From: an uncultured Rhodospirillales bacterium
GTDB lineage: Bacteria > Pseudomonadota > Alphaproteobacteria > Azospirillales > Azospirillaceae
NCBI GenBank assembly: GCA_903931735.1
Contig: CAIZDL010000192.1
Location: 18,608 to 82,607 of the forward strand
Reading direction: 5' to 3'
DNA length: 64,000 nt
The notes beneath the pieces are model-generated. The model worked only from the letters and a program-made list of their open reading frames with translations, ran no database searches and was not told where the DNA came from. The position numbers were made by a program, and so were the translations under genes. Position 1 is the stretch's first letter, and each line of letters begins with the position of its first letter. This document shows positions 1,184-19,430 of this stretch, piece after piece.

Positions 1184-1578
1184 CGGAAAGCCTCCAACGT
1201 CGGTTGCGCACCCGGCCTCGTCACTCTTCATGGACGATCATCGTGGCCTACAGTCGTCAAAGATAGCCTGAGCGTCACAAACTTTACAACAAGCATTTCC
1301 CACTAAACTATACAAAATCATCCTGCCCCGACAATTATCGCACCGCACAATACTCCATAAGCTCACTGAGCAACGAGCTATTTCTTCTCACTACAGCGGG
1401 ATTTACCTGCAAAATCATTACGAGTTTCTTAATAAAGACGTTTCAAATGCCCGCTTTTTTTCCACCACAAGGGAGGACGAATGCCGACACGCTTTGACGT
1501 ACAATTGTTCAATTGCCTTAGGGGACGCGCATCCGTATCATGGCTCAGGAGTCCCGTAACATTGAGGGGGGTATCAAC

Positions 1579-2433
1579 GTGTTGCTTGGCAAAAATCACT
1601 ATAACCGAACCGGCATCGCGCGGTCGGGCTTGGCTGCCATGGTCAGCGTTTCGCTTGTTCTTAGCAGCCTTACCGGATGCGTGACCACACGCGACGATCG
1701 GATCGGAGCCGACGACGGGTCCGACGCCTGCCTGGCCTATGTGGTCGCTCTCGACTCAACCGGCAACTATTTCGCCGAAGATATGATTAAGGGCGCAGCC
1801 ATTGGCGCGCTCGGCGGCGCGTTGATCGGCGGCATTGCGAGCGGCAACTGGCAAGGCGCGGCCATTGGCGCCGTCAGCGGTGCCGCAGTGGGCGCTCTCG
1901 GCGGCTACTGGAAGAGCAAAATGGATCAAGGCAAAGACCAAGCGGTCACCAGCCTGGCTTCCGACATGAACGCCGATGAAGCGCAACTGGACAAGAGCCA
2001 GGCCGCCTTCAAGCAACTCACCGCCTGCCGCCGCGATCAGGCTAAAAAGATCCGGGCGCAGTACACCGCAAAGTCGATCACCCGCGACGAAGCCCAAACC
2101 CGCCTGCGGATGCTGGGAACCCAGGCCCGTAAAGACGTTGATATCCTCAACGCCATTACTGGCAATGCCGATAAGCGCTTGGCCGAATACCAGTACGCCG
2201 CCAATCAAATCGACCCCAACGTTCCGGCACCGTCCGCATCGAACGAGAATTCGAGCAGTTCAAGCAGCTCGAGTGCCGACCGCAAGCCAAACCGTCCCCA
2301 CAAGCCGACACGGACGGGGCCGCCGACCACCCAGGGCTTTGCATCACTTCAGTCAAAAGCATCGACCCTCAAGCAGAACAGCTCCGACTACGCAGCAGAG
2401 TCGAGCGGTTGGGAAAGTGCCAAGCTGGGTTAA
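1579..2433 (+). CDS. Lipoprotein with a glycine-zipper segment, a coiled-coil region and a Ser-rich tail
   Basis: Lipobox LSSLTGC. Gly-zipper GAAIGALGGALIGGIASGNWQGAAIGAVSGAAVGALGG. The in-frame GTG at 1579 is preceded by GAGGGGGG; the track ORF starts at 1540. There is a poly-Ser run (SSSSSSSS) near the C-terminus. Confidence 0.75.
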   Translation: MLLGKNHYNRTGIARSGLAAMVSVSLVLSSLTGCVTTRDDRIGADDGSDACLAYVVALDSTGNYFAEDMIKGAAIGALGGALIGGIASGNWQGAAIGAVSGAAVGALGGYWKSKMDQGKDQAVTSLASDMNADEAQLDKSQAAFKQLTACRRDQAKKIRAQYTAKSITRDEAQTRLRMLGTQARKDVDILNAITGNADKRLAEYQYAANQIDPNVPAPSASNENSSSSSSSSADRKPNRPHKPTRTGPPTTQGFASLQSKASTLKQNSSDYAAESSGWESAKLG

Positions 2434-2493
2434 GGCATTTACCGGCTGGTATCGCAGGCTAAATGTACGAACCTTTTGAGTCCGAAGGTTTCG

Positions 2494-2520
2494 GGGGTGA
2501 CGGCCAATCGCCGTCACCCC
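2494..2520 (+). terminator. Stem-loop downstream of the lipoprotein gene
   Basis: GGGGTGACGGC / GCCGTCACCCC forms an 11-bp stem with a 5-nt loop, followed by TGGCTTTCC (weak U tract). Confidence 0.5.
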
Positions 2521-2647
2521 TGGCTTTCCGCCAGATTGTACGGGCCGTCTGATCATTTCATCAGGCGGATGGTTGCTTGAGTTGGCCGGTTCTTCAACAA
2601 GCTGCGTCATACCGGCGCCTTCGTGCCGGTTTCCGGGAGGGTTGCCG

Positions 2648-5600
2648 ATGTCTGTATTCCGGTTGGGCCGAGTGGGTTTGGCGCTGATTTTATCCCTGAC
2701 ACTCGCCATGGGGCGCTCCGCTCCGGCCGAGGCCGCCGATGGCGCCGCCTGGGTGGAACCACCGTCTGAGCCGTTCTTGCGCATCGAAACCGGGATGCAC
2801 ACCGCGATCATCAATCGAATTTCCGTGGACGCCACTGGGCGATTGGCGGCAACCGCCTCCGACGATAAAACCGTGCGCCTATGGTCTTTGCCGGAAGGGC
2901 GGCCGGTTGGAACGCTACGGGTGCCAATTGGCAATGGCCCCGAGGGCAGCCTTTACAGCGTCGCGCTGTCTCCCGATGGCGCCACCGTGGCTGCGGGCGG
3001 GTTCGTGGGCCAGCAATGGGACGGCCGCCCGTCCCTTTACCTTTTCGATGTCGCAAGCCGGAAGATCAAGGCACGGCTGCCAAAATTACCCAGCGAAATC
3101 CTCCATTTGGCCTTTTCTCCCGATGGCCGGCGGCTGGCGGCGGCCTTTGGCGGCGGCGCCGGATTGATCGTTTACGACATGGGCACCGGTAAAATCCTGG
3201 GGGAGGACCATAACTATAGCAACCAACCGTCAAATTGGGTCGCTTTCGCACAGGATGGACGCCTCGCCACCACCGGCTTTGACGGCAACGTGCGCCTTTA
3301 CGACGCCTCGGTGAAGTTGATCGCCAAGCGCACCCTGCCCGGCGCCAACCGGCCGTTTTCGGTCGCATTTTCACCCGACAATGCGACCTTGGCGGTGGGA
3401 TCGTTCGACACCCCGAAGGTTGATATCCTGTCGGCGGCCGACCTCAAATCCCGCTCCTCACCCGATACCAGCGACCTTAAAGGCGGCAATCTTGCGGCGG
3501 TGGCGTGGATCGAGGATGGACGCCAAGTCTTGCTGGCCGCAGGCGGCACCGCCAGCCGCGACGACGGCTCGCGCATCATCCGGGTTTGGTCGGGGGCCGG
3601 CACCGGGCGCTCGGTCGACATCTCCGCCGCAAAAGACTCGATCAACCAAATCGCGCCGCTCAGCGGGGGCGAGGCGCTGTTTGTGAGCGCCGCCCCGTCA
3701 TGGGGACGGATCGGCGCCGGCCGAAAACTGCTGGAGATAACCAGCCCCACCGCCAACTTCCGCGATATTTCCGCCGGTCGGTTCGCGGTTTCCGAAGATG
3801 GTCTCACCCTCGAATTTGGCATTGCGGCCAAGGGCCAGCGCCCGATGCGGTTGGACCTGCGCGACCATAGCTATGGCCCGGCTCCAAAAGCCGACCCAAC
3901 ACTTGCCAAAGCCATGACCGAGGCATCTGCCTTTAAAATAACAAATTGGCAGCATTCCAACGCGCCAATGATCGGAAACCGCAAGCTTCGGCTGGATGGC
4001 GAAGAAAGAACGCATAGTTTAGCGATCACTCCCGATGGTCAATCCTTTTTGCTGGGCGGTGACTATTGGCTCCGCTGGTTCAACAATACTGGTGCGTTGA
4101 TTGAAAAAGTGGCCATTCCCGCTGCTGCGACCGGCATCACCGTCACCCGATCAGGGACCACGGCGCTGGTCGCGCTCACCGATGGCACCCTTCATTGGTA
4201 TAACCTGGCCGGCGGCAGCAAACCTTTGGAGGAGCGCGCCTCCTTATTCGTTCATGGCGACGGCCAACGCTGGGTTGCCTGGACTCCGGAAGGATTCTTT
4301 GACCATGCTGAAAACGGCGGCAAGGATATGGTCGGATATCACTTCAACAAAGGACGAACCACCACGCCGGAGTTCATCAACTTCGCCCAGGTTTACCAAT
4401 TACTTCATAGCTCAGACTTGGTAATGAAGAAAATTACTGGCGGTTTTGACCCGGAAATTGCCCGAACCTATACCAATATCGGAAATCTGCGCGCCCGCTT
4501 TGAGCGCCATCCGCTGCCAAAGATTGAAAATCTTGAATATTGTTGGACCCAGGCGGGAGGGCAGGAAATGTGCCGTCCGATCAACGAAATTGGCACCCGC
4601 GGCTTTGTGCGCGACACCAGCCGACCAACCGCGCCCGGCAGCACGGTTTCAACCACCCCCTCCCCGGTCGCGGCTGCACTATCGGCGACAGTTCCTGCTG
4701 ATATTTCGCAAGTGAAGTTAAAGTTCAAAATTGTCGACGGCGGCGGCGGAGTGGGCGATATCGGCGTTTTTGTCAATGACCACAACATTGATCGCCAGGA
4801 TATCACCCGCGCATTTCGCCGCGATACTGGGTCCGCTGCTGCCATAACCTCGCCTGGCCCCCAGGGATTCAACCGACTTGTTTCGCTTGACCCGGGCAGT
4901 AACCGCATAGAACTTCGAATTTACGATGGCGCACGCACCGCCTTTGCCAGTTCCGGGCGGATAGAGCTGGTCCGCTCATCACCGCCGACCGAAGGCGGAC
5001 CGCAGCTAGCCCCCGCGAGCAAGCCCCGCCTGTTCGTTTTGGCGGCCGGCGTCGATGTCTACAAAAACCCGGCCTACCACCTGAATTTCCCCGTCGCCGA
5101 TGCCGAAGGGGTAACTGCGGCATTAAAAGACCGGGTGGGTGATCTATATGAAAAAGTATTTGTGCCAACCATTACGCCCAGTCGTGCTGTTGTGTTCGCC
5201 GAGGCAAAAACCGGCACCGCCGTTCTGGCCAACGAAAACGCGAGCCTTGAAATGATCGAAAAGGCATTCAAGGCCTTAACTACCGGTGATATCGTACGTC
5301 CCGCCGATACTGTCGTTATTTATTTGGCCGGACACGGCGTTCGTGAAGACGGTGGCGCCGGAAGCTCTCAGGCTGCTGGCAAATTCTACTTCATCACATC
5401 AAACGTCGACAGCCCCGATACCGTAGCCGGTCAAGCTCTTGGGCAAGATGTTCTGCTTCAACACCTCGTTGAGATTAACGGCAAAAAAGCGCACATTTTA
5501 CTTGTGCTGGATACGTGCCATTCGGGCGCTTTTGCCAAAGGCACCCCAATCGATGCCATCACCAACCTGAACGATGAAGCCGGGATCTCGGTGCTCGCCG

Positions 5601-5875
5601 CCGCCGCTTCAAACCAAGAAGCGCTCGATGGCTACCGACCCCAAGGACGCGGACGGGCCGAGCACGGCGTTTTTGCCTACGCGGTCATCTCGGGCATTGG
5701 CGGCGCTGCTACGGCCGATGAAACCGGGATCATTTACCCCACCTCATTGGCGCGCTATGTTAAAGAGGCCGTGATCAAGCTGGCAGCCGAGGTCAGCCCA
5801 AATCACAAGCAGCAAGCCAAATGGCAACCCCTTGGCGAACAAGACGACTTTCCTTTGGCACGGAAGTTTCGGTAG
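2648..5875 (+). CDS. Exported WD40-repeat / caspase-fold (peptidase C14) protein, 1075 aa
   Basis: ATG at 2648 after GGGAGGG. Signal peptide MSVFRLGRVGLALILSLTLAMGRSAPAEA. WD40-type repeats (DDKTVRLWSL, SPDGATVAAGG, SPDGRRLAAA, DGNVRLYD, SPDNATLAVGS). C-terminal C14 domain with YLAGHG (His codon 5333..5335) and LVLDTCHSG (Cys codon 5516..5518). Confidence 0.85.
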   Translation: MSVFRLGRVGLALILSLTLAMGRSAPAEAADGAAWVEPPSEPFLRIETGMHTAIINRISVDATGRLAATASDDKTVRLWSLPEGRPVGTLRVPIGNGPEGSLYSVALSPDGATVAAGGFVGQQWDGRPSLYLFDVASRKIKARLPKLPSEILHLAFSPDGRRLAAAFGGGAGLIVYDMGTGKILGEDHNYSNQPSNWVAFAQDGRLATTGFDGNVRLYDASVKLIAKRTLPGANRPFSVAFSPDNATLAVGSFDTPKVDILSAADLKSRSSPDTSDLKGGNLAAVAWIEDGRQVLLAAGGTASRDDGSRIIRVWSGAGTGRSVDISAAKDSINQIAPLSGGEALFVSAAPSWGRIGAGRKLLEITSPTANFRDISAGRFAVSEDGLTLEFGIAAKGQRPMRLDLRDHSYGPAPKADPTLAKAMTEASAFKITNWQHSNAPMIGNRKLRLDGEERTHSLAITPDGQSFLLGGDYWLRWFNNTGALIEKVAIPAAATGITVTRSGTTALVALTDGTLHWYNLAGGSKPLEERASLFVHGDGQRWVAWTPEGFFDHAENGGKDMVGYHFNKGRTTTPEFINFAQVYQLLHSSDLVMKKITGGFDPEIARTYTNIGNLRARFERHPLPKIENLEYCWTQAGGQEMCRPINEIGTRGFVRDTSRPTAPGSTVSTTPSPVAAALSATVPADISQVKLKFKIVDGGGGVGDIGVFVNDHNIDRQDITRAFRRDTGSAAAITSPGPQGFNRLVSLDPGSNRIELRIYDGARTAFASSGRIELVRSSPPTEGGPQLAPASKPRLFVLAAGVDVYKNPAYHLNFPVADAEGVTAALKDRVGDLYEKVFVPTITPSRAVVFAEAKTGTAVLANENASLEMIEKAFKALTTGDIVRPADTVVIYLAGHGVREDGGAGSSQAAGKFYFITSNVDSPDTVAGQALGQDVLLQHLVEINGKKAHILLVLDTCHSGAFAKGTPIDAITNLNDEAGISVLAAAASNQEALDGYRPQGRGRAEHGVFAYAVISGIGGAATADETGIIYPTSLARYVKEAVIKLAAEVSPNHKQQAKWQPLGEQDDFPLARKFR

Positions 5876-5896
5876 GTCTCTGCAACGATACAACCG

Positions 5897-7747
5897 ATGG
5901 AGTCAATAATGCGCTGGATGGTTGCCGGACTAACCGCTTTAACTTTTGTGGCTGGAGCCCCAGCCCCAAACGCTTTCGCCGCTGTTAACACCTTTGGCTT
6001 GGTTATCGGCGTCGACGACTACCAGTATATTAGCCCGAAGCTTGAAGGCTCGGTCAACGACGCCACCGATGTGGCAAACGCGCTTCAAAAAGACGGCGCC
6101 CAAGATGTCAGACTATTGCTTGATCAAAAGGCGAGTCGAGATGCGATCATGGGCGCCTGGAATGACCTGATGGCAAAAGTGCAGAAAGGCGACAACCTAA
6201 TCTTTCATTTTGCCGGCCATGGCGGACAGGAACCGGAACATGTCAAAGGCTCCGAGGAGTCAGGCTATGACTCAACTTTACTTCTCGCGGGATTTTCGCT
6301 AAAGGGTCCCGGCACCTACGAACGCATCGTGGACGATGAATTGGGAGCGATGTTCCAACGCGCCTCCGACGCGGGCGTCAACCTGCTGGTGGCAATCGAT
6401 GCCTGCCATTCCGGCACCATGACCCGCGCCTTCAACAACCCATCGATCGCAAAGCCCCGTGTTCGGGCGGTGACCTATCTGCCGATTGCCGCAAGTGAGG
6501 ATCGATTGCCGTTGATAGACCCGGCTTGGTCAAAAATTCCCAAAGAACTGCCCCATGTGTTTTACTTCGGGGCGGTCCATGACCACGAAGAGGCCCCCGA
6601 GATTGCAATTGGCGGCCAACAACGGGGCGCCCTTAGCTGGTCGCTGGCATCGGGTTTACGGGGCGCCGCCGATGCCAACAAAGACGGGGTGATTACGGTC
6701 AGCGAATTGCGCGACTATATCATCGACCAAATCCAGATCAAAGTTGAAGGGCAACAGCATCCATCGATCATTCCCACCAAGTCCCGTGGGGTTACGTTTG
6801 TCGACAGAGGCGAGTTTTCGATTTTAAGCCCCCAAGCACTCGAGATTGTTAAGGTCGCGTCAAAGGATGGGCTCACCGACTATGCCAAACAATTACTGGC
6901 ACAAGCGGTTAAGGAGGGTCCGGGAGATTCCGGAACTGACAAACTTCAAGCTATTATGAAGGCTATTCAAGAAAAAGCCAAGAGCAATGCCCAACAGATC
7001 CCGTCAACCGCAATCCAGATGGCAATTATCAATACCTCACTCGGAGCCATGCCCGAACTGAGGGCACCCCTGACCAATGTTCAAATCGTCGAACCTGCAA
7101 GCAGGCCGCTCCTGACATGGGATGTGGGGAAACGAAGGGTTCTGTCTTCGCTCGGCGATATCGTCGCCGATTTTTCCAGCAGCGCCAGCACAACGGCCGA
7201 TGACACACGGGCCTTTAAGCGTCAGGTCAATACCAGCGAGTCCAAGCAAACGATTGGCGCTGCAACCGATGTGCCGATGGCTCAGGCGGTTATCGACAAA
7301 TGGCACCTTACGGAATTGATTAAGACGCTCGCCGAGAAGCAAAGCCTCGGCATTTCGCTCCAACCCGGTGACGCTATTCATACCCTCGGGGAGAAAGTAA
7401 TGTTTTCCGTCGAGGGCCAGAACCAACCCTACTTAACGTTATTTAACCTTGCTTCCGATGGCACCGTAAACTTTATTTACCCACTCGCTACCGCCGAGGT
7501 TAAGGACCCGCTCAACATCCCCCTCGGGCGGCCCTATGATGTGCCTCTTGTGGTTGCCCCCCCCTATGGGGCCGATCACCTTGTGGCGATCGCCAGTGCC
7601 GAACCGCTTGTCGAGCTCCATAAAACCCTAACGGAGATTGACAACAAGCCAACAGCGCGCGCCCTCGAAACCGCTCTACGCACACAACTCAACGGCCGTA
7701 CCTACCAAATCGGCATTCACGGCTCCTACACGGCCAAGCAGCGCTAG
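5897..7747 (+). CDS. Exported caspase-fold (peptidase C14) protein with a C-terminal DUF4384-like domain, 616 aa
   Basis: Signal peptide MRWMVAGLTALTFVAGAPAPNAFA. FGLVIGVDDY...FHFAGHGG (His 6218..6220) and VAIDACHSG (Cys 6404..6406). The C-terminal GDAIHTLGEKVMFSVEGQNQPYLTLFNLASDGTVNFIYP matches my recall of DUF4384. It starts 22 nt after the preceding gene. Confidence 0.85.
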   Translation: MESIMRWMVAGLTALTFVAGAPAPNAFAAVNTFGLVIGVDDYQYISPKLEGSVNDATDVANALQKDGAQDVRLLLDQKASRDAIMGAWNDLMAKVQKGDNLIFHFAGHGGQEPEHVKGSEESGYDSTLLLAGFSLKGPGTYERIVDDELGAMFQRASDAGVNLLVAIDACHSGTMTRAFNNPSIAKPRVRAVTYLPIAASEDRLPLIDPAWSKIPKELPHVFYFGAVHDHEEAPEIAIGGQQRGALSWSLASGLRGAADANKDGVITVSELRDYIIDQIQIKVEGQQHPSIIPTKSRGVTFVDRGEFSILSPQALEIVKVASKDGLTDYAKQLLAQAVKEGPGDSGTDKLQAIMKAIQEKAKSNAQQIPSTAIQMAIINTSLGAMPELRAPLTNVQIVEPASRPLLTWDVGKRRVLSSLGDIVADFSSSASTTADDTRAFKRQVNTSESKQTIGAATDVPMAQAVIDKWHLTELIKTLAEKQSLGISLQPGDAIHTLGEKVMFSVEGQNQPYLTLFNLASDGTVNFIYPLATAEVKDPLNIPLGRPYDVPLVVAPPYGADHLVAIASAEPLVELHKTLTEIDNKPTARALETALRTQLNGRTYQIGIHGSYTAKQR

Positions 7748-7774
7748 GCCCCAAGCAACGCAATCACACCCAAC

Positions 7775-7800
7775 GTCAGCCAGCGCCTTCGCTGGCTGAC
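7775..7800. terminator. Hairpin between convergent genes (possible bidirectional terminator)
   Basis: GTCAGCCAGC (7775..7784) pairs with GCTGGCTGAC (7791..7800): a 10-bp perfect stem with a 6-nt loop. It lies between the stops at 7747 (+) and 7831 (-). Confidence 0.5.
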
Positions 7801-7830
7801 ACCCCGATAAACCCCGAGCCCCGAACGCTG

Positions 7831-8160
7831 CTACTTACAAACGTTCACGATATTCCGCGCGGTTACCACCGTTTCCCGGCCGCTATTGACACCGCCGACG
7901 TTCATCGTACAATCCCCCTTCCGGGCGTTCCCCATATGAACGAGCGTGTCGGAGGTCGGGTCGTAAGAGTTCCCCCCACCGGTGTCGTTACTGTTCATGC
8001 CGCCCGTGGTCCCATATTGCCTCGCCTTGACAGCGTTGACGGCGGTATTTCCTGAGTTGGTCAGATGTGTGGGGTTATTGATGTCCCCTGCGTAAGCCAC
8101 CCCACCGCTAAGCATGAACGCCGCGATGAGAGCCATCAGGGGTCGGGTGCAGCTATACAT
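7831..8160 (-). CDS. Small secreted Asn/Gly/Thr-rich protein (109 aa), member of the local paralog family
   Basis: GGAGGA lies 5 nt before the ATG at 8160. Signal peptide ...MLSGGVAYA. Mature part NSGNTAVNAV...GDCTMNVGGVNSGRETVVTARNIVNVCK has a Cys pair near the C-terminus. Confidence 0.75.
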   Translation of the reverse strand: MYSCTRPLMALIAAFMLSGGVAYAGDINNPTHLTNSGNTAVNAVKARQYGTTGGMNSNDTGGGNSYDPTSDTLVHMGNARKGDCTMNVGGVNSGRETVVTARNIVNVCK

Positions 8161-8370
8161 TACAGTCCTCCATCAGAGTTTGACGAGATGATTAGAGCAC
8201 ATCTCCAAGATAATAGGCGATGCCGCCCGAAAAGAAACATCCGGGAACGATGCCCCGCTCTAACAACAAAACATATGCCTATTTCTCGAGCCGCGATAAG
8301 CAAGCTGTCGCTGGTGAGCCTGCCCAACCCATGGTATCCTGTCGCCTATCGAACTGAACAGGAGGGTGAT

Positions 8371-8676
8371 ATGAAACCCGCGACCTGCATTTGCGCCATA
8401 GTGGCCCTTGCCATCCCGTTGCTCCCGTTGGGCCACGCCCAGGGCCAAACGGCGAGCCAAAATATTACCATCAACTCCATTGGTGAGGACAACAGCACCT
8501 CGTTCCAGAGTGGAATCGCCAACGACAGCCAAGTCGTCGGCATCACCATAATCAATAATGAGATATGGATCGACGGCGAAAAAGTCCCGCGCGGTGCCAC
8601 CAAATTTACCGGCCGCTCGGGGAAAAACTACCGTATCGAACGAGTCGGCGGCGCCATCCAAGTTCGGGACGAGTAA
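8371..8676 (+). CDS. Small secreted protein (101 aa)
   Basis: The ATG at 8371 is preceded by GGAGGG (8361..8366). Signal peptide MKPATCICAIVALAIPLLPLGHA. Mature N-terminus QNITINSIGEDNSTSFQSGIAND resembles the NTTINA motif of the neighbouring small proteins. Confidence 0.7.
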   Translation: MKPATCICAIVALAIPLLPLGHAQGQTASQNITINSIGEDNSTSFQSGIANDSQVVGITIINNEIWIDGEKVPRGATKFTGRSGKNYRIERVGGAIQVRDE

Positions 8677-8695
8677 TCGCCCCCCATACCAACCA

Positions 8696-8724
8696 CCGCC
8701 CGCGCGGCTCGACCACGCGGGCGG
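8696..8724. terminator. Hairpin between convergent genes
   Basis: CCGCCCGCG (8696..8704) pairs with CGCGGGCGG (8716..8724): a 9-bp GC stem with an 11-nt loop. It lies between the stops at 8676 (+) and 8790 (-). Confidence 0.4.
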
Positions 8725-8789
8725 CATTGTCGATTGCCCGCTGGCGCAAACACCACAACCATGGCGCGACCACCTGGAAACAGCCATGG

Positions 8790-9377
8790 CTAGCGGCACC
8801 CCCCTCCCCCAACGGCGATGGTATTAACACCCTGAGCGTTGCTGGTGGGGTCGCCAGACCGGTCGACAACCACCACATTGCCCACCGTTCCCAGTGACAC
8901 CGTGGCACTCGTGCACGGACGACGGCCGCCATCGCCGTCCGACCAAGACCGCGCCCGATCCATGGCAGTGTCCAACGGACGCTGACTATCCAACCCGCCC
9001 GGCGGCGTCCCGGGCAAAATCACCAACGTATTATTCCCGCTTCGATTGCCATCTTTGCCTTGGGATTGCGCCTTCGCACGCAGACGGTTGCGAATCATCG
9101 CCTCCCGGTTTTTTTCCGCTGCCGCCTCGGCGGCCGAGCCCTCCGGCGCAATAATTATAATGTTGGGAACCGTCCCACGATTCGGGTCCCCATACATCCG
9201 CGCCCGGGCCTCGTTATCGATTCCCGCCTCCCGATTTACCTGCCCCGGACTGGGTGAGGCCGAAGCCTCACCCGACCCCAGAGGGACAACGATCAACTCG
9301 CCAGCAAAGGCAACGCCACAAACAAACGTCAGCAACCCCGCCAGTTGGACAAATGCCATTTCAATTTTGATCGCCAT
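8790..9377 (-). CDS. Secreted protein (195 aa); its C-terminus is related to the small repeat-protein family
   Basis: The ATG at 9377 is preceded by GGGAGG at 5 nt. Signal MAIKIEMAFVQLAGLLTFVCGVAFA. The C-terminal CTSATVSLGTVGNVVVVDRSGDPTSNAQGVNTIAVGGGGCR shares the GVNTIAVG motif and the terminal Cys pair. The mature N-terminus ELIVVP resembles EIIVAP of ORF 13147..13494. Confidence 0.7.
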   Translation of the reverse strand: MAIKIEMAFVQLAGLLTFVCGVAFAGELIVVPLGSGEASASPSPGQVNREAGIDNEARARMYGDPNRGTVPNIIIIAPEGSAAEAAAEKNREAMIRNRLRAKAQSQGKDGNRSGNNTLVILPGTPPGGLDSQRPLDTAMDRARSWSDGDGGRRPCTSATVSLGTVGNVVVVDRSGDPTSNAQGVNTIAVGGGGCR

Positions 9378-9394
9378 CCAAGCCTCCCGTGAGT

Positions 9395-9422
9395 AATCGG
9401 GGCGGACCATTCCGCCCCGATT
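9395..9422 (-). promoter_or_regulatory. Strong intercistronic stem-loop between the CsgG-like gene and the downstream gene
   Basis: AATCGGGGCGGA (9395..9406) pairs with TCCGCCCCGATT (9411..9422): a 12-bp perfect stem with a 4-nt loop. There is no U tract, and the SD of the next gene follows immediately. Confidence 0.5.
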
Positions 9423-9427
9423 TCACA

Positions 9428-10915
9428 TTACTGCACGGTTATGTCGAGCCGCGACGTGGAAACATTGGGATTGGCCGCCCGGAAGATCCCATCAATCTCT
9501 TCGAGTGAGCCAACCGCCAACCTTGTCAGATCTTTTTCTTTCAACTTGGCCGGCAAGGGGACCTCCGACTCGCTCGCCAAGCACGAGACAACCTCGTGAC
9601 CGGCCTTATCAAAGCGGATTTTTACCGGCTGCTGCGGCGCCGACAAAGGCACCATCCGGCTACTCACATAGGCGTTCGGCTGGAAGCGGTTGGGGAACAA
9701 GCGCGCAATCGTGCCGTCCGCATCCTGATAGTAGCAGTAGAGGAACGAATTGCGCCCCAGATCGACCCTGGCGCTGAGGATGGAATTCGGCTCATACGTC
9801 GGGTTCGCGCCACGATCCGAAAGCACCGTAACCGGCACCAGCGTCTTGGTAACAGTCACCGGCGGCGGACGGCGGGTGTCGTCGGCAACCGGAGCTTCAT
9901 CGTCCAACAAGGCGAAATACAGCTCGAAATTAGTCTGGCCGTTCGCGATTAAGCCATTGCTGGCCTGATAGCGGCCAATCGCCTCGCGGGTCGCCGAATC
10001 AAGCTCGCCGTTCGCAGAACCCTGATAAATATTCGTGGCCGACAGCTTGCGCTGAACAAAGCTTACTTTGTCCTTCAGGCCCATCGCGTCGTACCATTCG
10101 CGCGCCTGCTCCCGCAGTTTTGGGTTGCTCTTCTCGATCTGCAAGCATTTCCAATACGGCGTATGGGAGAACTGGCCGACCATTTCGATCGCACCCAGTT
10201 CAATAAGTGCGCGCACCGCGGCACCAAGCCCTTCCGACGTATTAAACGAAATATTGATGCTAAGGCCCATCTTACCAATCTTGCCGCCCGCCTCACCTGA
10301 GCGACCAAGCCGGACCACCGCCATAGTATTACTGGAACCAGCATCGGAAATGATTTGGCGCGATACGGTCTCGCCAATATTCATATCCAACCCAACCAGC
10401 GAAACAATCTGGTCTTTCGAGATACCGAGATCGGCGAAGGGGGTTGATATCGCCCCGCCGAGTTGGCTTTCCAAGGCATTGTCATCCAACTGGGTGATGG
10501 CACCACGAATATAATATGATGGCACCTTATAACCAGCACCCGACGCCCGCTGCGCATCGATGAAGAAGCTGGCATTCAGTGGGTCATAATCAATATAGGA
10601 AAACGCTTTTGACTTCCGGGACATCAGGTTGAGCGCCCTGATCAGCATTTCTTTAGTGCCGACCGAAACTTTTTGGGTCGAATCTGTAATGCCGGCAGTC
10701 GTGATTGTGATATCATGCTTGCCGTAAGTCATCATCAAATTGTCCATGCACTGCAAGGCCGGCGTAAAGCTGGTGAAGGTCTTGCTGGCTGGTGTCTTCG
10801 GCGCGGCTGCAAGCGTCGCCGTATCCGGGTCTGGCGTCACGCAACCGACCACCATGCCCGCTGCAATCAGACATGCGGCAAGCTGGCGAGCCCTCTTCTT
10901 AAATGTTGGGTTCAT
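9428..10915 (-). CDS. Lipoprotein fusing a CsgG-like domain, a peptidoglycan-binding (PG_binding_1-like) domain and a DUF4384-like domain, 495 aa
   Basis: ATG at 10915 with GGAGGA upstream. Lipobox AAGMVVGC. YYIRGAITQLDDNALESQLGGA, SKDQIVSLVGLDMNIGETVSRQII and NTSEGLGAAVRALIELGAIEMVGQ align by eye with E. coli CsgG (IMVEGSIIGYESNVKSGGVGA, QLDQIAVNLRVVNVSTGEIL, SNEPVMLCLMSAIETGVIFLI). VQRKLSATNIYQGSANGELDSATREAIGRYQASNGLIANGQ looks like PG_binding_1. SARVDLGRNSFLYCYYQDADGTIARLFPNRF looks like DUF4384. Confidence 0.8.
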   Translation of the reverse strand: MNPTFKKRARQLAACLIAAGMVVGCVTPDPDTATLAAAPKTPASKTFTSFTPALQCMDNLMMTYGKHDITITTAGITDSTQKVSVGTKEMLIRALNLMSRKSKAFSYIDYDPLNASFFIDAQRASGAGYKVPSYYIRGAITQLDDNALESQLGGAISTPFADLGISKDQIVSLVGLDMNIGETVSRQIISDAGSSNTMAVVRLGRSGEAGGKIGKMGLSINISFNTSEGLGAAVRALIELGAIEMVGQFSHTPYWKCLQIEKSNPKLREQAREWYDAMGLKDKVSFVQRKLSATNIYQGSANGELDSATREAIGRYQASNGLIANGQTNFELYFALLDDEAPVADDTRRPPPVTVTKTLVPVTVLSDRGANPTYEPNSILSARVDLGRNSFLYCYYQDADGTIARLFPNRFQPNAYVSSRMVPLSAPQQPVKIRFDKAGHEVVSCLASESEVPLPAKLKEKDLTRLAVGSLEEIDGIFRAANPNVSTSRLDITVQ

Positions 10916-10960
10916 GGATACCAAGGTCCTCCGTTGTTGGTCGCGCTCCAATCCTGACCG

Positions 10961-11923
10961 TCAGGGCGAACGCGAACGCTCCTTTTGAAAAAATCGGCTC
11001 GGCGGCGCCCCCGCCCAGAACCGGCTCACTAAACCCTCGACTTCCCCCACCGTCAAACCAACCATAGCAGGGCTAAAAACGTCATGGGAAGGTGTATGGA
11101 TCAGATACGCCTGTGTCTCGTTAATCATCAGGTCGCCATTTTCGGGATCATACCCCTTACCGGCGAGAAACTTCCGAAACGCGGCCCGCTCACTCTCGGT
11201 TAGTCCCCTCGCCCAAAAATCCCGGCAATATTCCGAGTAGGCTGGGTTGGTATAATACTCGCCATGAGAAATCTCATGGTGAAGAATAGCCTTGCGAAGT
11301 TGGGGTGTAATAGCAGCCTGACCCGATTTCTTGCGAACAGCAACCGATCCGCCCCCACTCTGTGGAATTGAAATAATAACTCGCTCAGGTGGGACCGGGG
11401 TGTAGAACTCAAACTTGCGCTCCATCACCCCTTTAGCAATGAGAAAATCACGAAGGCCAATCTCATCGTTATTTAAATCGATTTTCTCGTCACTGGCGAT
11501 TGTATAAAACTTGGCTAAGTCAACACTGCGAAAATCATTACCGTATGCGTAAGTTGCGAAACCTTTGCCCGATGCCGTCATCAGGCCTTCCAACTGTGTG
11601 TCGGTCAACACATGTTCGCGTTCCCCGCCCTGACGCTCGATAAGGGCGAGGATGCGGCTAAACATCCGCCCTTGCTGCTCAAGCTCCGGAAAATCAAGGA
11701 TAAAGACCGCCGGATTACCGGCAACGACGTGAATGGCCAACTGCCGACTGTGAAACGACTCAAGCGCCGCCACACTGGCCGCCATCCGCACCTCGGCATC
11801 AAACGCCCAGGCTCCCCGACACTCAAAAACGCCAACCAGAAAAGCCGTGGCCGCGACACCAACCGCCGCGGCGAGCCCCGCGCCACCACAACCAGCGAAT
11901 ACGCGGGGACCTCGCCTCGACAT
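10961..11923 (-). CDS. Membrane-anchored hypothetical protein with an HExxH motif (possible metallohydrolase), ~320 aa
   Basis: The track ORF 10961..11950 starts at a GTG; an ATG at 11923 has GAGG upstream. N-terminal hydrophobic anchor AGLAAAVGVAATAFLVGVF. Motif ILHHEISHGEYY (H-E-I-S-H). I recognise no family. Confidence 0.6.
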   Translation of the reverse strand: MSRRGPRVFAGCGGAGLAAAVGVAATAFLVGVFECRGAWAFDAEVRMAASVAALESFHSRQLAIHVVAGNPAVFILDFPELEQQGRMFSRILALIERQGGEREHVLTDTQLEGLMTASGKGFATYAYGNDFRSVDLAKFYTIASDEKIDLNNDEIGLRDFLIAKGVMERKFEFYTPVPPERVIISIPQSGGGSVAVRKKSGQAAITPQLRKAILHHEISHGEYYTNPAYSEYCRDFWARGLTESERAAFRKFLAGKGYDPENGDLMINETQAYLIHTPSHDVFSPAMVGLTVGEVEGLVSRFWAGAPPSRFFQKERSRSP

Positions 11924-11978
11924 GAGCCTCACCAAATTTTGCGACCACACCCAGGACGCACCAAACGAAACGCGCCGA

Positions 11979-12695
11979 TCAGCCTTTCAATTCGAACTGA
12001 ACACGACGATTGGAGGGATCGCGAGGGCTCGCGCCATTGAGCGGCTGGCTTGGCCCTTTCCCAACGGCGGTAAGACGCGACCCTTCAAGACCATATTTTT
12101 GCATCAAAACATCGCGGACAGCATTGGCCCGCGCCATCGAAAGCTCCATGTTCCGAGCATAGACACCGCTCGCATCGGTATGACCCTCGATTGTCAACGA
12201 GTATTGCTTCTCTTCCGTCAAGATCTTGGCGATACCATCCAGAAACGCCTCGGACCCCGGCCGCAAAGACGCCGACCCGACATCAAACTGAATCCGCATC
12301 GCGACCTGTTTGCCGCCACCCGATTCCTGACTGCTCGAAGACGCCGCTGGCCGTGCTGGCCGCGGCCGTGACGCCGACGAAGGCTGTTGACGACGGGGTT
12401 GCTGACGTGCGGCCGGCGGCGAATCAGAGTCATCGGAGGCGGATGAGGCTGACGGCGCCGCAGGAGCGGCAGGGGCCGCCGGAGCAGCAGGGCCATCAAT
12501 CTGAATGCTGCGAGTCCGCACGGCGGGCTTGTGAGTCATGCCCAACGCATCGCGCAGCTCATCGACGCTCGGCGGGGCATCGAATACCTTGACACTCTCA
12601 GCATGAGCGGAAAGTCCCAACAAGAACACAACCGAGGCAAAACCAATAGTCGCGTGGATAAGCCTGGATCGGCGGCCTGTTAGTCTGCTCATCAT
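11979..12695 (-). CDS. OmpA-family peptidoglycan-binding protein with a Pro/Ala/Ser-rich linker
   Basis: Signal ...FLLGLSAHA. Linker PAAPAAPAAPAAPSASSAS. OmpA_C motifs: IQFDVGSASLRPGS...LTIEGHTDASGVYARNMELSMARANAVRDVL...NRRVQFEL. Confidence 0.85.
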   Translation of the reverse strand: MMSRLTGRRSRLIHATIGFASVVFLLGLSAHAESVKVFDAPPSVDELRDALGMTHKPAVRTRSIQIDGPAAPAAPAAPAAPSASSASDDSDSPPAARQQPRRQQPSSASRPRPARPAASSSSQESGGGKQVAMRIQFDVGSASLRPGSEAFLDGIAKILTEEKQYSLTIEGHTDASGVYARNMELSMARANAVRDVLMQKYGLEGSRLTAVGKGPSQPLNGASPRDPSNRRVQFELKG

Positions 12696-12789
12696 GACGT
12701 TACCCCTTCATAAAGATTCGCCCCGCGGGGCACTGTTCATACCGGCAAAATCTTAAGTCTGCTCCAAACCTTAGGTCTGGGCCTAAACC

Positions 12790-13101
12790 TTAGTCGCACT
12801 TGCCCGACGACCCGATATTGATGCACCCCTTGCGACCGTGACCGGTCACAATGTTATCGACGTTCTTCACATCGACCGTCACCGAAGTCGGCCCCCTGGT
12901 GCTTTCATCGATCACACCAATCCGCGTGTTGGCGGTATTGCCAGTCCCGGCCGCGATCGTGTTGACATTCCGTGCGGTGGCATCAATGTGCGTCGTCCCC
13001 TTTATCTGGACGCCGCCCGACTGCTGGGCCAACGCGGAGGTCCCCGCAACCAGTGCCAAAGACACCACCATGCCCCCGAGAACCATAGTTGAGCGACGCA
13101 T
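12790..13101 (-). CDS. Small secreted repeat protein (103 aa), paralog family
   Basis: ATG at 13101 with GGAGAA upstream. Signal MRRSTMVLGGMVVSLALVAGTSALA. VQIKGTTHIDATARNVNTIAAGTGNTANTRIGVI is a repeat homologous to that of ORF 13619..13951. The C-terminus GRKGCINIGSSGKCD has a Cys pair. Confidence 0.75.
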   Translation of the reverse strand: MRRSTMVLGGMVVSLALVAGTSALAQQSGGVQIKGTTHIDATARNVNTIAAGTGNTANTRIGVIDESTRGPTSVTVDVKNVDNIVTGHGRKGCINIGSSGKCD

Positions 13102-13146
13102 AGTGTTCTCCATATTTGAGCAAAACATTAACCAATCAAAGCCAAA

Positions 13147-13494
13147 CTACCGCGAGAGCAAAATGATTGTTTGGTGATTGGGTGCACTGGTCCCCCGCCG
13201 AAGATCTTCCGCGTGCCACAATGACCGGCTGACATTACTCTGGCTGGAGCGCAACGCACCAGAGCTACCGCCACCTCCACCCGGCAACGGCGCCAGCAGC
13301 GGCGTCTGGGGGTAATAAAGGATGGTCGACGGCACCGCCAGCGCAGACGAATGGACCACCAGGGGGATACCAATCCCCTCACCCGGCGCCACAATGATCT
13401 CTGCGCGGGCAGGCAGGATCGCGACCCAACCCAACGCGACGAAACCGACCAATCGGGCCGCACCCGAAATCAGGAGACGACAAACGCGTTTCAT
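13147..13494 (-). CDS. Small secreted protein (115 aa)
   Basis: The ATG at 13494 is preceded by GGGAGG at 7 nt. Signal MKRVCRLLISGAARLVGFVALGWVAILPARA. The mature N-terminus is EIIVAPGEG, and there is a Gly run PGGGGGSSG. Confidence 0.65.
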   Translation of the reverse strand: MKRVCRLLISGAARLVGFVALGWVAILPARAEIIVAPGEGIGIPLVVHSSALAVPSTILYYPQTPLLAPLPGGGGGSSGALRSSQSNVSRSLWHAEDLRRGTSAPNHQTIILLSR

Positions 13495-13570
13495 GACCAC
13501 GCCTCCCACCCATTATAAATGAGCCCAACACGTGCCATTATCAAGCAAACTACTATCAAGTAAACGACCC

Positions 13571-13610
13571 GGAGCCGGGCAACCTCGCTAAAAGCGCGCT
13601 GCCCGGCTCC
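13571..13610 (-). terminator. Stem-loop immediately after the first small-protein gene (partial terminator or attenuator candidate)
   Basis: GGAGCCGGGCA (13571..13581) pairs with TGCCCGGCTCC (13600..13610): an 11-bp stem with an 18-nt loop. It lies 8 nt downstream of the stop at 13619 and before the next gene in the same orientation. Confidence 0.45.
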
Positions 13611-13618
13611 AGTGCTGC

Positions 13619-13951
13619 TTACTTACCAATCCCACCAACGGTGGTCTTGGCCTTGTTGTTCTGCCCAACTGCGGTGGTGTTCACATCAACCGCAGTGGCG
13701 TTGATCGTGGTGTTGCCCTGAATCTGGGTGCCGCCACCGATGGCGCCAACCGCAGTTTCCGCAGTGTTACCCTGCCCAATGGCGGTGGTGTTCAGATTCC
13801 GGCCACTGGCGTTAATCGTCGTGTTGCCCTGAATCTGTACCCCGTCCGGATTGGTGCTCGACTGCATCCGAACGCCGCCCGCTGACTGCGCAAAAGCGGC
13901 ACCAGCCAAGGCAACGACGGCAACAGCGGTGAGGACTGCAAGCTTACGCAT
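13619..13951 (-). CDS. Small secreted tandem-repeat protein (110 aa), candidate major subunit of the family
   Basis: GGAGG lies 7 nt before the ATG at 13951. Signal MRKLAVLTAVAVVALAGAAFA. Two ~36-aa repeats: VQIQGNTTINASGRNLNTTAIGQGNTAETAVGAIGGG and TQIQGNTTINATAVDVNTTAVGQNNKAKTTVGGIGK. Confidence 0.8.
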   Translation of the reverse strand: MRKLAVLTAVAVVALAGAAFAQSAGGVRMQSSTNPDGVQIQGNTTINASGRNLNTTAIGQGNTAETAVGAIGGGTQIQGNTTINATAVDVNTTAVGQNNKAKTTVGGIGK

Positions 13952-14999: not shown

Positions 15000-15077
15000 C
15001 GATTGACTCGGCTCCTGTCCCCTCGCACACTTCAACCGGGGTTTCAACCATGGCGGCAAACGGTGAGAACAGGCAAC

Positions 15078-16181
15078 ATGAGAAACCCGCTTGACCCGCC
15101 CATAAACGAGCGATGCGGCCCCACCCAGAGGGTGGATACCAACCACGCCCGAAGGGCCGATACCAACCAAGCCCGCACTTGGATCGATGGCTGGCCGCAG
15201 CTTGCCCGCAGCGAAATCGTTGACCGCACCCACGCCCTTGGCCGGGTCCTAGCGGAAACGGTGGCCGCCCCCCATGATATCCCGCCGTTCGATCAAGCGC
15301 TCATCGCCGGCTATGCTGTCCGCGCCGCCGCCACGGTGGGCGCCGGGAGCTACACGCCCTTGACGCAACCGCTGGCGCACGCGGTCACGCGAGGCCAGCC
15401 AATGCCGGATGGCGCCGACGCCGTGCTGCCGTTTGAGGCGACCACCTCTGGCCCCACGGGGCAGATTGAAGCAACGGGCACCGTCGCCGAGGGCGATGGC
15501 ATGGAGCCCCGCGGTCAAAGTTTGCGCGCCCACACCCCCGCCCTGAGTTATGGCCGCCCCCTTAGTCCCGAGGCCCTGGGGCTGCTCGCGCAGTTTGGCC
15601 ATCAAACGGTGCGGGTCCTGTGCCACCCCTGGGTGCGACTGGAGGACAGCGCCAACACGCCACTGCTGGCCCCCCTGATCAAGCGGGATGGCGGCATCGC
15701 CGCACCGGCGGGCACCGAACCGGACTTAATCCTCATCCCCGGCGGCGCCTACGCCCAGACCGAATTTGCGCTGGAACTCGATGGCCTAGCGCTGCGCCCG
15801 GGGGGTGAAGCCGGGCTCGGCCGCTGCCAGAACGTGCCGGTGATCCGGCTCCCACAAGAGCCTCTGGCCTGCCTCACCGCCTATGAACTGCTCGCCGGAC
15901 GATTGCTCCGGCGCTTGGGCGGGCGGCCCTGCGCCCTGCCTCACCCCACATGCCAAGTCCCGCTGACCCGCAAGATCAGCTCGGCCATTGGCTGGGTCGA
16001 GGTGGTGCGGGTGGTGCTTGCGGGAAACGGGGCCGAGCCGCTAGGCTCCACGGAAGGCGGCGGGCTGGTAACGGCCTGCCGCGCCGATGGCTTTGTTATT
16101 ATCCCGCCAGGCCGGGAAGGGTTTGGCTCGGGCGAAATCGTGACCGTCCATCTGCTGCACGCGAGGGATGATGACTGGTGA
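15078..16181 (+). CDS. Degenerate MoeA-like protein (MoeA N- and C-terminal domains, eroded central MoCF-binding domain)
   Basis: ALGRVLAETVAAPHDIPPFDQALIAGYAV replaces the usual SAMDGYAV. It lacks the STGDE and GGxSxGxxD motifs but keeps a MoeA_C-like end (GFVIIPPGREGFGSGEIVTVHLL). The start is uncertain: the ATG at 15078 is the first that does not overlap fdhD. Confidence 0.65.
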   Translation: MRNPLDPPINERCGPTQRVDTNHARRADTNQARTWIDGWPQLARSEIVDRTHALGRVLAETVAAPHDIPPFDQALIAGYAVRAAATVGAGSYTPLTQPLAHAVTRGQPMPDGADAVLPFEATTSGPTGQIEATGTVAEGDGMEPRGQSLRAHTPALSYGRPLSPEALGLLAQFGHQTVRVLCHPWVRLEDSANTPLLAPLIKRDGGIAAPAGTEPDLILIPGGAYAQTEFALELDGLALRPGGEAGLGRCQNVPVIRLPQEPLACLTAYELLAGRLLRRLGGRPCALPHPTCQVPLTRKISSAIGWVEVVRVVLAGNGAEPLGSTEGGGLVTACRADGFVIIPPGREGFGSGEIVTVHLLHARDDDW

Positions 16182-19418: not shown

Positions 19419-19430
19419 ACGCCCCGGCCC

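Follow-up and report, generated by a model that had tools for sequence, protein, structure and literature searches.

The subject of this analysis is a gene cluster at positions 1540 to 13951 of a 64-kb stretch of DNA (the window) from an uncultured Rhodospirillales bacterium (assembly GCA_903931735.1, contig CAIZDL010000192.1, positions 18,608 to 82,607). It represents a new branch of the CsgG/HfaB kind, whose subunit family and accessory enzymes are likewise new, and its conservation extends over more than 80 alpha-, beta- and gammaproteobacterial species. At its centre lies the gene of a lipoprotein that joins a CsgG-superfamily N-terminal domain (N-domain) to PG_binding_1 and DUF4384 domains, accompanied by genes for small exported repeat proteins, an OmpA-like peptidoglycan binder, a putative metalloprotease and two exported caspase-like (C14) proteases. 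The reading preferred here, tentatively and at somewhat less than even confidence, is that of a type VIII-like secretion and assembly system, which would export small β-stack repeat proteins and assemble them on the cell surface.

The N-domain of the lipoprotein (about residues 24-265) has a divergent CsgG-superfamily fold, a conclusion based on five independent lines of evidence. The NCBIfam model of HfaB (NF037935) matches it with an E-value of 2.4e-6 and 27 bits, over model positions 143-260 of 264. With an AlphaFold2 model based on 24 homologues, whose mean predicted local distance difference test score (pLDDT) is 74, a Foldseek search of the PDB places CsgG at ranks 1-13 (best 4uv2, E 1.3e-6; TM-score 0.39-0.49 by target length) and then gives weaker matches to FlgT, PelC and HpaA (E 1e-4 to 5e-3). 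The family profile aligns by hhalign with Escherichia coli CsgG (the sequence used being identical to PDB 3x2r) with an E-value of 7e-5 over 166 columns, from the lipobox through the first hairpin. Three relatives recognized by the N-domain profile (E<=1e-53) reach 17, 19.9 and 20.1 bits with Pfam CsgG (PF03783), below its gathering cut-off of 20.8 bits, and a faint precomputed match to the same family is on record for the homologue in locus L086. Finally, the JGI annotation of some homologues reads CsgG-like. The lipobox (VVGC in the window, LAGC in the family consensus) aligns with that of CsgG, and its cysteine is at least 90% conserved. Two insertions of CsgG-hairpin-like length occupy residues 146-169 and 203-226, and in the second of these residues 213-225 alternate strictly between hydrophobic and polar in all 24 sequences. 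The C-terminal part carries PG_binding_1 (30.8 bits) and DUF4384 (37.1 bits), and searches of PDB sequence profiles with the whole-lipoprotein family return only weak matches to peptidoglycan-binding domains. Canonical CsgG is not among the best 150 matches to the N-domain profile in 1.84 billion representative sequences, all 150 of which belong to the same family.

Conservation of the neighbourhood was followed outward from the lipoprotein, whose full-length homologues number at least 419. Scanning one genome per GTDB species by pattern gave 99 relatives, from which 80 loci were kept with up to 10 kb of flank, and the six-frame open reading frames (ORFs) of the loci were searched with iterated profiles built from the window proteins. 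Families were counted within 10 kb of the lipoprotein gene in 82 fetched loci plus the window, making 83 (Table 1). The gene set recurs around lipoprotein homologues in the 82 loci of other species and is one conserved system, in line with the envelope system that the first-pass annotation of the window had proposed, and reciprocal searches started from repeat proteins of distant lineages recover the same neighbourhood. OmpA is present in 46, C14 in 39, the CHASE2 adenylate/guanylate cyclase in 35 and the repeat family in 23 of the 49 loci that have at least 8 kb on both sides. Clustering of the lipoproteins at 55% identity leaves 10 clusters, with C14 in 7, OmpA in 8 and repeat proteins in 9. 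C14 proteins are rare in genomes (the window has only two, both in the locus) and their linkage is recurrent, so the linkage goes far beyond chance, with the qualification that the locus counts are not phylogenetically independent.

By gene order, the tightest partnership is that of a repeat protein, an sm109-type protein and the CsgG-like lipoprotein. In about 40 loci the distance of the repeat and sm109 genes from the lipoprotein gene is 0.4-2.9 kb, and in nearly all lineages they are its direct neighbours, with the sm109 gene usually adjoining it. The partnership persists where the lipoprotein is stripped down: variants of 368 aa (lacking DUF4384) and 276 aa (lacking both C-terminal domains) are each directly preceded by an sm109-type gene (L087-L089), and the 368-aa variants by a repeat-family gene as well. 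No caspase or CHASE2 cyclase occurs in the 8-kb downstream flank of one variant without DUF4384 (L088), while the contigs of L087 and L089 are too short to judge the presence of either. Two irregular lipoprotein genes deserve mention. An apparent fusion of the lipoprotein to C14 in L072 was rejected as a stop-free out-of-frame read in high-G+C DNA, in which the C14 gene simply follows. In L077 the lipoprotein gene gives two separate matches around 10000-11660, the result of a frameshift or an assembly error.

Table 1. Genes of the cluster in the window, with the frequency of their families among the 83 loci
Feature	Position	Strand	Length in independent gene call (aa)	Loci (of 83)	Support
Gly-zipper lipoprotein-like protein	1540..2433	+	297		Pfam Gly-zipper_YMGG, 38.2 bits
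Exported WD40 β-propeller/C14 caspase-like protease	2648..5875	+	1075	56 (C14)	Pfam WD40 and Peptidase_C14
Exported C14 caspase-like protease with C-terminal DUF4384, 612-616 aa	5897..7747	+	612	56 (C14)	Pfam
Small exported protein sm109, Asn/Thr/Gly-rich, C-terminal Cys...Cys segment	7831..8160	-	109	33	Recurrence
Small exported protein sm101p	8371..8676	+	101	22	Recurrence, independent gene call
Exported protein p206	8790..9377	-	195	25	Adjoins lipoprotein gene
Lipoprotein, CsgG-superfamily N-domain, PG_binding_1 and DUF4384; putative outer-membrane pore	9428..10915	-	495		Profile and fold
Exported HExxH protein, about 320 aa, putative zinc metalloprotease, unnamed family	10961..11923	-	274/320	22	Invariant motif
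Exported OmpA_C-like peptidoglycan-binding protein, Pro/Ala-rich linker	11979..12695	-	238	72	Pfam OmpA, 75.1 bits
Class II repeat protein sm112, one repeat unit and a C-terminal unit ending ...KGCINIGSSGKCD	12790..13101	-	103	42 (repeat family)	z 12 against sm110
Small exported protein sm120, mature N-terminus EIIVAP	13147..13494	-	115		Independent gene call
Class I repeat protein sm110, presumed main subunit	13619..13951	-	110	42 (repeat family)	Internal repeat
CHASE2 adenylate/guanylate cyclase (in relatives, absent from the window)				47

The presumed main subunit, sm110, consists of two 36-aa units with 22 of 36 positions identical (internal duplication, z 15), which follow the pattern (I/V)QGNTxINAxxxNVNTTAxGxGNTAxxxVGxIxGG. 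Across genomes the unit of the family reads (I/V)QGNTNINAxAxNVNAVAVGxGNTAKNxVGAIKGGT. The sm110 family has 37 homologues, and the repeat family as a whole takes three forms: a two-unit form ending in GxIGGK, a form with one unit and a Cys-bracketed C-terminal unit, and a form of three to four units found in Rhodocyclales. The AlphaFold2 model of sm110, computed from 35 sequences, is all-β in its mature part (pLDDT about 95) and shows an identical three-strand pattern twice; the predicted stack of two repeat layers agrees with the β-solenoid-like repeat proteins proposed from the sequence earlier. The repeat family matches nothing in Pfam, NCBIfam or PDB sequences, nor any curlin, and is therefore new. 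It is like functional-amyloid subunits in style, not by homology.

The first-pass annotation counted six small secreted proteins, most of them sharing repeats. Six are indeed exported, but only sm110 and sm112 share the repeat significantly; sm109, sm101p, p206 and sm120 show no significant similarity to these two or among themselves. p206, encoded directly downstream of the lipoprotein gene in 25 loci, starts after its predicted cleavage site with GE(L/I)I(V/I)V and continues through a low-complexity linker to a C-terminal Cys-bracketed segment. The same ending, a Cys...Cys-bracketed segment with a cysteine as the penultimate residue, is found in sm109 and sm112. sm101p lies on the strand opposite to the lipoprotein gene in the window and on the same strand in Rhodocyclales, and outside the window sm120 occurs in the closest relative alone (L004, 44% identity). 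In addition, two otherwise unrelated exported proteins per locus share the mature N-terminus (G/A)E(I/L)I(I/V)(V/A) after the predicted cleavage site: p206 and sm120 in the window, and the products of 11561-12049 and 12457-12996 in L001. This N-terminus could be a pore-binding or sorting tag.

The two tandem C14 proteins with signal peptides, one fused to WD40 and the other to DUF4384, proved to be as first described. In the former, whose signal-peptide-like N-terminus reads MSVFRLGRVGLALILSLTLAMGRSAPAEA, WD40 scores 71.7 bits (E 4e-20) and Peptidase_C14 28.8 bits at residues 802-1022; in the latter, Peptidase_C14 scores 57.7 bits and DUF4384 31.8 bits. Both C14 domains exceed the Pfam cut-off (PF00656, 21.4 bits) and have the dyad of a histidine (AGHG in both) and a cysteine (DTCHSG and DACHSG, respectively), which is retained in 61-62 of 63 locus-linked C14 domains. 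Orthologues of the WD40-C14 protein occur as far away as a gammaproteobacterial locus (L085, E 4e-129), and those of the C14-DUF4384 protein in L003 (E 5e-101) and L085; in L085, at 7317-9093, the latter is split into genes of 178 and 429 aa by a frameshift or an assembly error. Homologues of the Gly-zipper protein adjoin WD40-C14 in L005, L010 and L085 (E 7e-32). On these neighbourhood grounds the system takes in the complete caspase module of the window together with its Gly-zipper gene.

The joint occurrence of caspase genes and the minus-strand cluster in several classes disposes of the suggestion that the two are neighbours in this genome only. The caspases are not a constant part: C14 is absent within 10 kb in 10 of the 49 fully flanked loci and from the 8-kb flank of L088, and by gene content the caspases are frequent but dispensable accessories. 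Likewise, DUF4384 had been suggested as a docking element common to protease and lipoprotein. Both copies exceed the Pfam cut-off (PF14326, 27 bits), but a recent duplication or specific kinship between them is ruled out (BLASTP E 0.07) and the module is promiscuous. DUF4384 and FGE-sulfatase serve as alternative C-terminal modules in one bacterial Ser/Thr kinase family, and are therefore general extracytoplasmic modules and not a private docking pair. As a separate observation, residues 257-272 of the C14-DUF4384 protein (window 6665-6712; DANKDGVITVSE) match the pattern of an EF-hand calcium-binding loop, to which Pfam EF-hand_5 gives an E-value of 0.0015, below its cut-off; the motif hints that this exported caspase may be under calcium control.

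Of the remaining partners, the OmpA-like protein lies well above the Pfam cut-off (PF00691, 27.2 bits). The domain assignments of the first-pass annotation stand: WD40, C14, DUF4384, PG_binding_1 and OmpA each pass the Pfam gathering score, and the CsgG-like assignment is supported by fold and profile evidence. The HExxH protein has no match in Pfam, NCBIfam or PDB sequences apart from one spurious PDB profile match, and none of the 69 detected members of its family is named or carries a Pfam domain. H216, E217, H220, E222, N268, E269 and Q271 are invariant in 11 sequences, and the resulting pattern (HEISH with a downstream NExQ) fits a putative zinc protease.

The arrangement of the components differs between lineages. 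The layout of the window and of Rhodocyclales comprises repeat genes, OmpA, sm109, the lipoprotein gene, p206, sm101p, HExxH and one or two C14 genes; the Rhodocyclales version is organized as two divergent operons and adds an autotransporter-type barrel and a hydrolase. L086 combines sm101p, sm109, repeat genes, lipoprotein, HExxH, OmpA, C14, an autotransporter barrel and the CHASE2 cyclase. In L085, a metagenome-assembled genome of the Gammaproteobacteria, PP2C, FHA-C14, WD40-C14, the Gly-zipper homologue, C14 with DUF4384 and Sel1 are found together with two repeat genes, lipoprotein and OmpA. The Azospirillum layout consists of DUF4399, lipoprotein, OmpA, a small exported protein, a DUF4384 protein, the CHASE2 cyclase and C14-Big_9-FGE-sulfatase. 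Three Azospirillum ORFs of 127, 220 and 309 aa were discarded as Arg-rich artefacts. A plausible exported protein of 108 aa, outside the repeat family, lies between the OmpA and DUF4384 genes of Azospirillum brasilense (L062, 12519-12845), where longer overlapping ORFs look spurious.

Of the proposed mechanism, the CsgG-type fold, the neighbourhood of the cargo genes and the conservation are established, and pore formation, export, polymerisation and proteolysis are the steps that we infer. Several copies of the lipoprotein would join as an outer-membrane pore suspended from the peptidoglycan, with PG_binding_1 and the Ig-like DUF4384 domain, by analogy, placed in the periplasm below it. The OmpA-like peptidoglycan binder, almost always present, would support the tethering. 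Class I subunits would cross the pore unfolded and afterwards pile up end to end as fibres or sheets, since a subunit of two layers would hardly be stable alone. The Cys-capped sm112, sm109 and p206 are candidate nucleators, caps or pore adaptors, and p206 might, through its conserved free N-terminus, play the pore-binding part that CsgF has in curli. The exported C14 proteases, whose dyad is intact, and the HExxH protein might, at the most conjectural step, trim, mature or clear periplasmic subunits, with the WD40 or DUF4384 modules as possible guides of the C14 proteases. In many relatives, though not in the window, the CHASE2 cyclase would couple the system to nucleotide signalling. The more ambitious claim, that the cluster encodes a third independent bacterial surface-amyloid machinery after curli and Fap, in which two-layer subunits are exported through a peptidoglycan-tethered CsgG-superfamily pore and caspase-fold proteases mature or police them in the periplasm, is less likely than not.

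Several results weigh against secretion and assembly by a CsgG-type pore. The CsgG-like domain predicted in the first-pass annotation stands on fold and profile evidence, but PF03783 itself gives no match to the window N-domain even at E<=10, and the HfaB score of 27 bits is far from the equivalog cut-off of 300. The same fold occurs in the non-pore lipoproteins FlgT, PelC and HpaA. The constriction loop, a Tyr-Asn-Phe ring in CsgG, is largely deleted: hhalign places gaps of 8 and 4 columns opposite CsgG KPYPASNFSTAV, so that about 12 residues are missing at this site. As to the cargo, a Foldseek search with the sm110 model ranks two amyloid fibrils first, FapC (E 0.88) and CsgA (E 1.4), neither of them significant. 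A likening to curli subunits fails at the level of homology, since the repeat proteins have no Curlin_rpt match at E<=1 and hhalign against CsgA aligns the signal peptide only; the string GxGNxA common to curlin and the repeat family is a by-eye resemblance. Finally, about 40 Azospirillum-type loci have lipoprotein, OmpA, C14 and CHASE2 cyclase and no recognisable repeat gene nearby, so the secretion of repeat proteins is not the whole function of the family.

The Azospirillum-type loci favour the main alternative, unlikely on balance but serious, according to which the cluster encodes an envelope sensing and signalling complex. The lipoprotein would then serve, in the manner of PelC, FlgT or LpoB, as a scaffold bound to peptidoglycan instead of as a pore, the caspase as a signal-generating protease, the CHASE2 cyclase as the output in relatives, and the small proteins as ligands, decoys or substrates. 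The components common to window-type and Azospirillum-type loci are the lipoprotein, OmpA and C14, and both the CHASE2 cyclase (47 of the 82 loci outside the window) and a further DUF4384 protein are frequent additions. The use of DUF4384 and FGE-sulfatase as alternative sensor modules on Ser/Thr kinases and the existence of non-pore lipoproteins of the same fold agree with such a role, as does the addition of an FHA-C14 protein and a PP2C phosphatase in L085. There, the FHA/YscD-like C14 protein (1301-2911) and the phosphatase (428-1297) adjoin the system, a hint of a link to phospho-signalling. However, there is no CHASE2 cyclase in the 64 kb of the window, hairpin insertions of amphipathic pattern are typical of a CsgG-type pore, and the minimal conserved module is made up of the repeat protein, the sm109-type protein and the lipoprotein, with neither caspase nor CHASE2 cyclase in the flank of L088. 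Surface-polymer assembly and signalling do not exclude one another, and the family may couple both.

A role in envelope cell death or anti-phage defence, with the exported caspases degrading envelope proteins after damage or infection, is considerably less probable. Several conflict systems of bacteria use caspase-fold proteases as effectors, the generic caspase model of PADLOC matches both C14 proteins (E 8e-11 and 5e-18), and the G+C content of the locus (0.53-0.62, with 0.53-0.57 at 9500-11500) is lower than beyond fdhD (0.66-0.69 at 15000-18000). Against this, PADLOC yields no system-specific match, only the generic caspase model and ZorB/MotB models on the OmpA domain; NTPase, nuclease, TIR or sensor partners are absent; and the locus is chromosomal, syntenic over long evolutionary distances and dominated by structural repeat proteins, with no mobile-element genes seen adjoining it. 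That unrelated envelope genes have come together by chance, or that the cluster is a diverged form of a known curli, Hfa or Fap operon, is scarcely credible: the caspase genes do form a separate transcription unit on the strand opposite to the main cluster, and promoter and terminator scans give counts equal to the shuffled expectation, but the linkage recurs in Alpha-, Beta- and Gammaproteobacteria with differing gene orders, no CsgA/B/E/F, HfaA/D or Fap family was detected, and HfaB falls short of its cut-off by the margin given above.

[quoted passage not shown] Both also have neighbouring genes for small Gln/Asn/Gly-rich repeat proteins, Sec-exported and divided into a main class and minor classes, and for several small accessory secreted proteins. 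By contrast, the putative pore protein of the window scores below the PF03783 cut-off, lacks the constriction loop and ends in PG_binding_1 and DUF4384, and its presumed subunits are built of 36-aa units and are not curlin homologues. No homologues of CsgE, CsgF, CsgC or CsgD were detected, the small proteins being without Pfam or NCBIfam match, and curli have no counterparts of the OmpA partner, the HExxH protein or the C14 proteases. The holdfast anchor of Caulobacter (HfaA/HfaB/HfaD, with HfaE), also found in Alphaproteobacteria, includes the best-scoring named family for the N-domain, and HfaB, itself a CsgG-like lipoprotein, is required for the surface display of HfaA and HfaD, which are small and amyloid-like (PMC6707917). 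However, HfaA and HfaD find no match among the window products, holdfast polysaccharide genes are absent nearby, and the Hfa system lacks the extra C-terminal domains and the proteases.

The Fap system of Pseudomonas (FapA-F) is likewise an operon for secreted repeat subunits, and its FapC fibril heads the non-significant matches of the sm110 model. The operon carries a dedicated cysteine protease, FapD. In this case the outer-membrane component is the trimeric β-barrel FapF and not a CsgG-like lipoprotein, FapD is of the C39 type and not C14, and no sequence similarity to the window was found. PelC, FlgT and HpaA are ring-forming lipoproteins of the same fold, which act at the inner face of the outer membrane and are not pores. 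They are not known to have the two hairpin insertions that form the barrel in CsgG, whereas the window protein keeps both at CsgG-like length.

Both window C14 proteases are ordinary members of the bacterial orthocaspases/metacaspases by Pfam score and dyad. Surveys of these proteins have catalogued fusions of C14 with WD40, DUF4384 and FGE-sulfatase as well as signal-like N-terminal helices, and found OmpA in 14 metacaspase operons (PMC3501461, PMC7475262). They cover architectures only, and none ties C14 to a CsgG-like lipoprotein or to repeat proteins, or assigns a function to the exported members. No Pfam, NCBIfam or PADLOC model names the system, and in the open full-text literature it is described nowhere and touched only by such surveys of domain architectures. 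The view that the system is undescribed thus holds for the sources searched.

If the preferred reading, secretion and surface assembly of the repeat proteins, is correct, the few secretion systems of the CsgG type (type VIII) would gain a further branch, and the functional amyloids of bacteria a new subunit family. The cluster occurs in Rhodocyclales, Azospirillum and other groups that are dominant in flocs, in biofilms and in the rhizosphere. Caspase homologues of bacteria have been listed for over ten years, and hardly any has been given a function. For the exported ones the locus provides a testable context, in which the neighbours are defined, there are candidate substrates, and several hosts can be cultured (Azospirillum, Rhodocyclus, Propionivibrio, Sulfuricystis). 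Should the caspases mature or police amyloid subunits, this would be the first physiological role for secreted bacterial orthocaspases. A CsgG-like pore without the usual constriction loop may also interest nanopore engineers.

Concerning the boundaries, all genes listed in the first-pass annotation were recovered where it had placed them, and for the twelve genes of the cluster the ORF listing equals an independent gene call on identical metagenome contigs. On the left the unit reaches to 1540, beyond the earlier 2648, because the Gly-zipper lipoprotein accompanies WD40-C14 in other genomes, where it forms part of the caspase module. The flanks are those first named: FdhD (253 bits) on the right and a divergent STAS/CheY/CheA cluster on the left. 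The Gly-zipper and caspase genes follow one another on the plus strand, and the minus-strand set runs from 13951 down to 7831 in the order sm110, sm120, sm112, OmpA-like, HExxH, lipoprotein, p206 and sm109, with gaps of at most about 125 nt between the seven genes from sm110 to p206; sm101p is the lone small plus-strand gene in its midst. Read by eye, every product has a signal-peptide-like N-terminus, and the 495-aa protein a lipobox. A search for riboswitches and other known RNA elements (Rfam) returned zero in seven loci.

A number of minor observations complete the picture. A terminator-like hairpin at 13567-13580 on the minus strand, between the sm110 stop codon and the next gene, would favour higher expression of sm110, but the regional count of such sites equals the shuffled expectation. 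A complete locus of the proteobacterial, outer-membrane type occurs on a contig labelled 'Candidatus Micrarchaeota archaeon' (L009, JBBITJ010000042.1), with a lipoprotein that shares 53% identity with the window protein, as much as the Rhodocyclales homologues do; it is probably a contamination of the genome bin. In Sulfuricystis multivorans (L001, 19297-21017), paralogues of 262 and 300 aa close a long operon after two C14 genes; they have no Pfam match, the 300-aa one has a lipobox, and they occur in 8 loci and are absent from the window. To the right of fdhD, at about 15250-20500, the window contains a run of three molybdopterin genes of the MoeA type, including one with a fused PBP_like domain, followed by an NADH-dehydrogenase-like gene.

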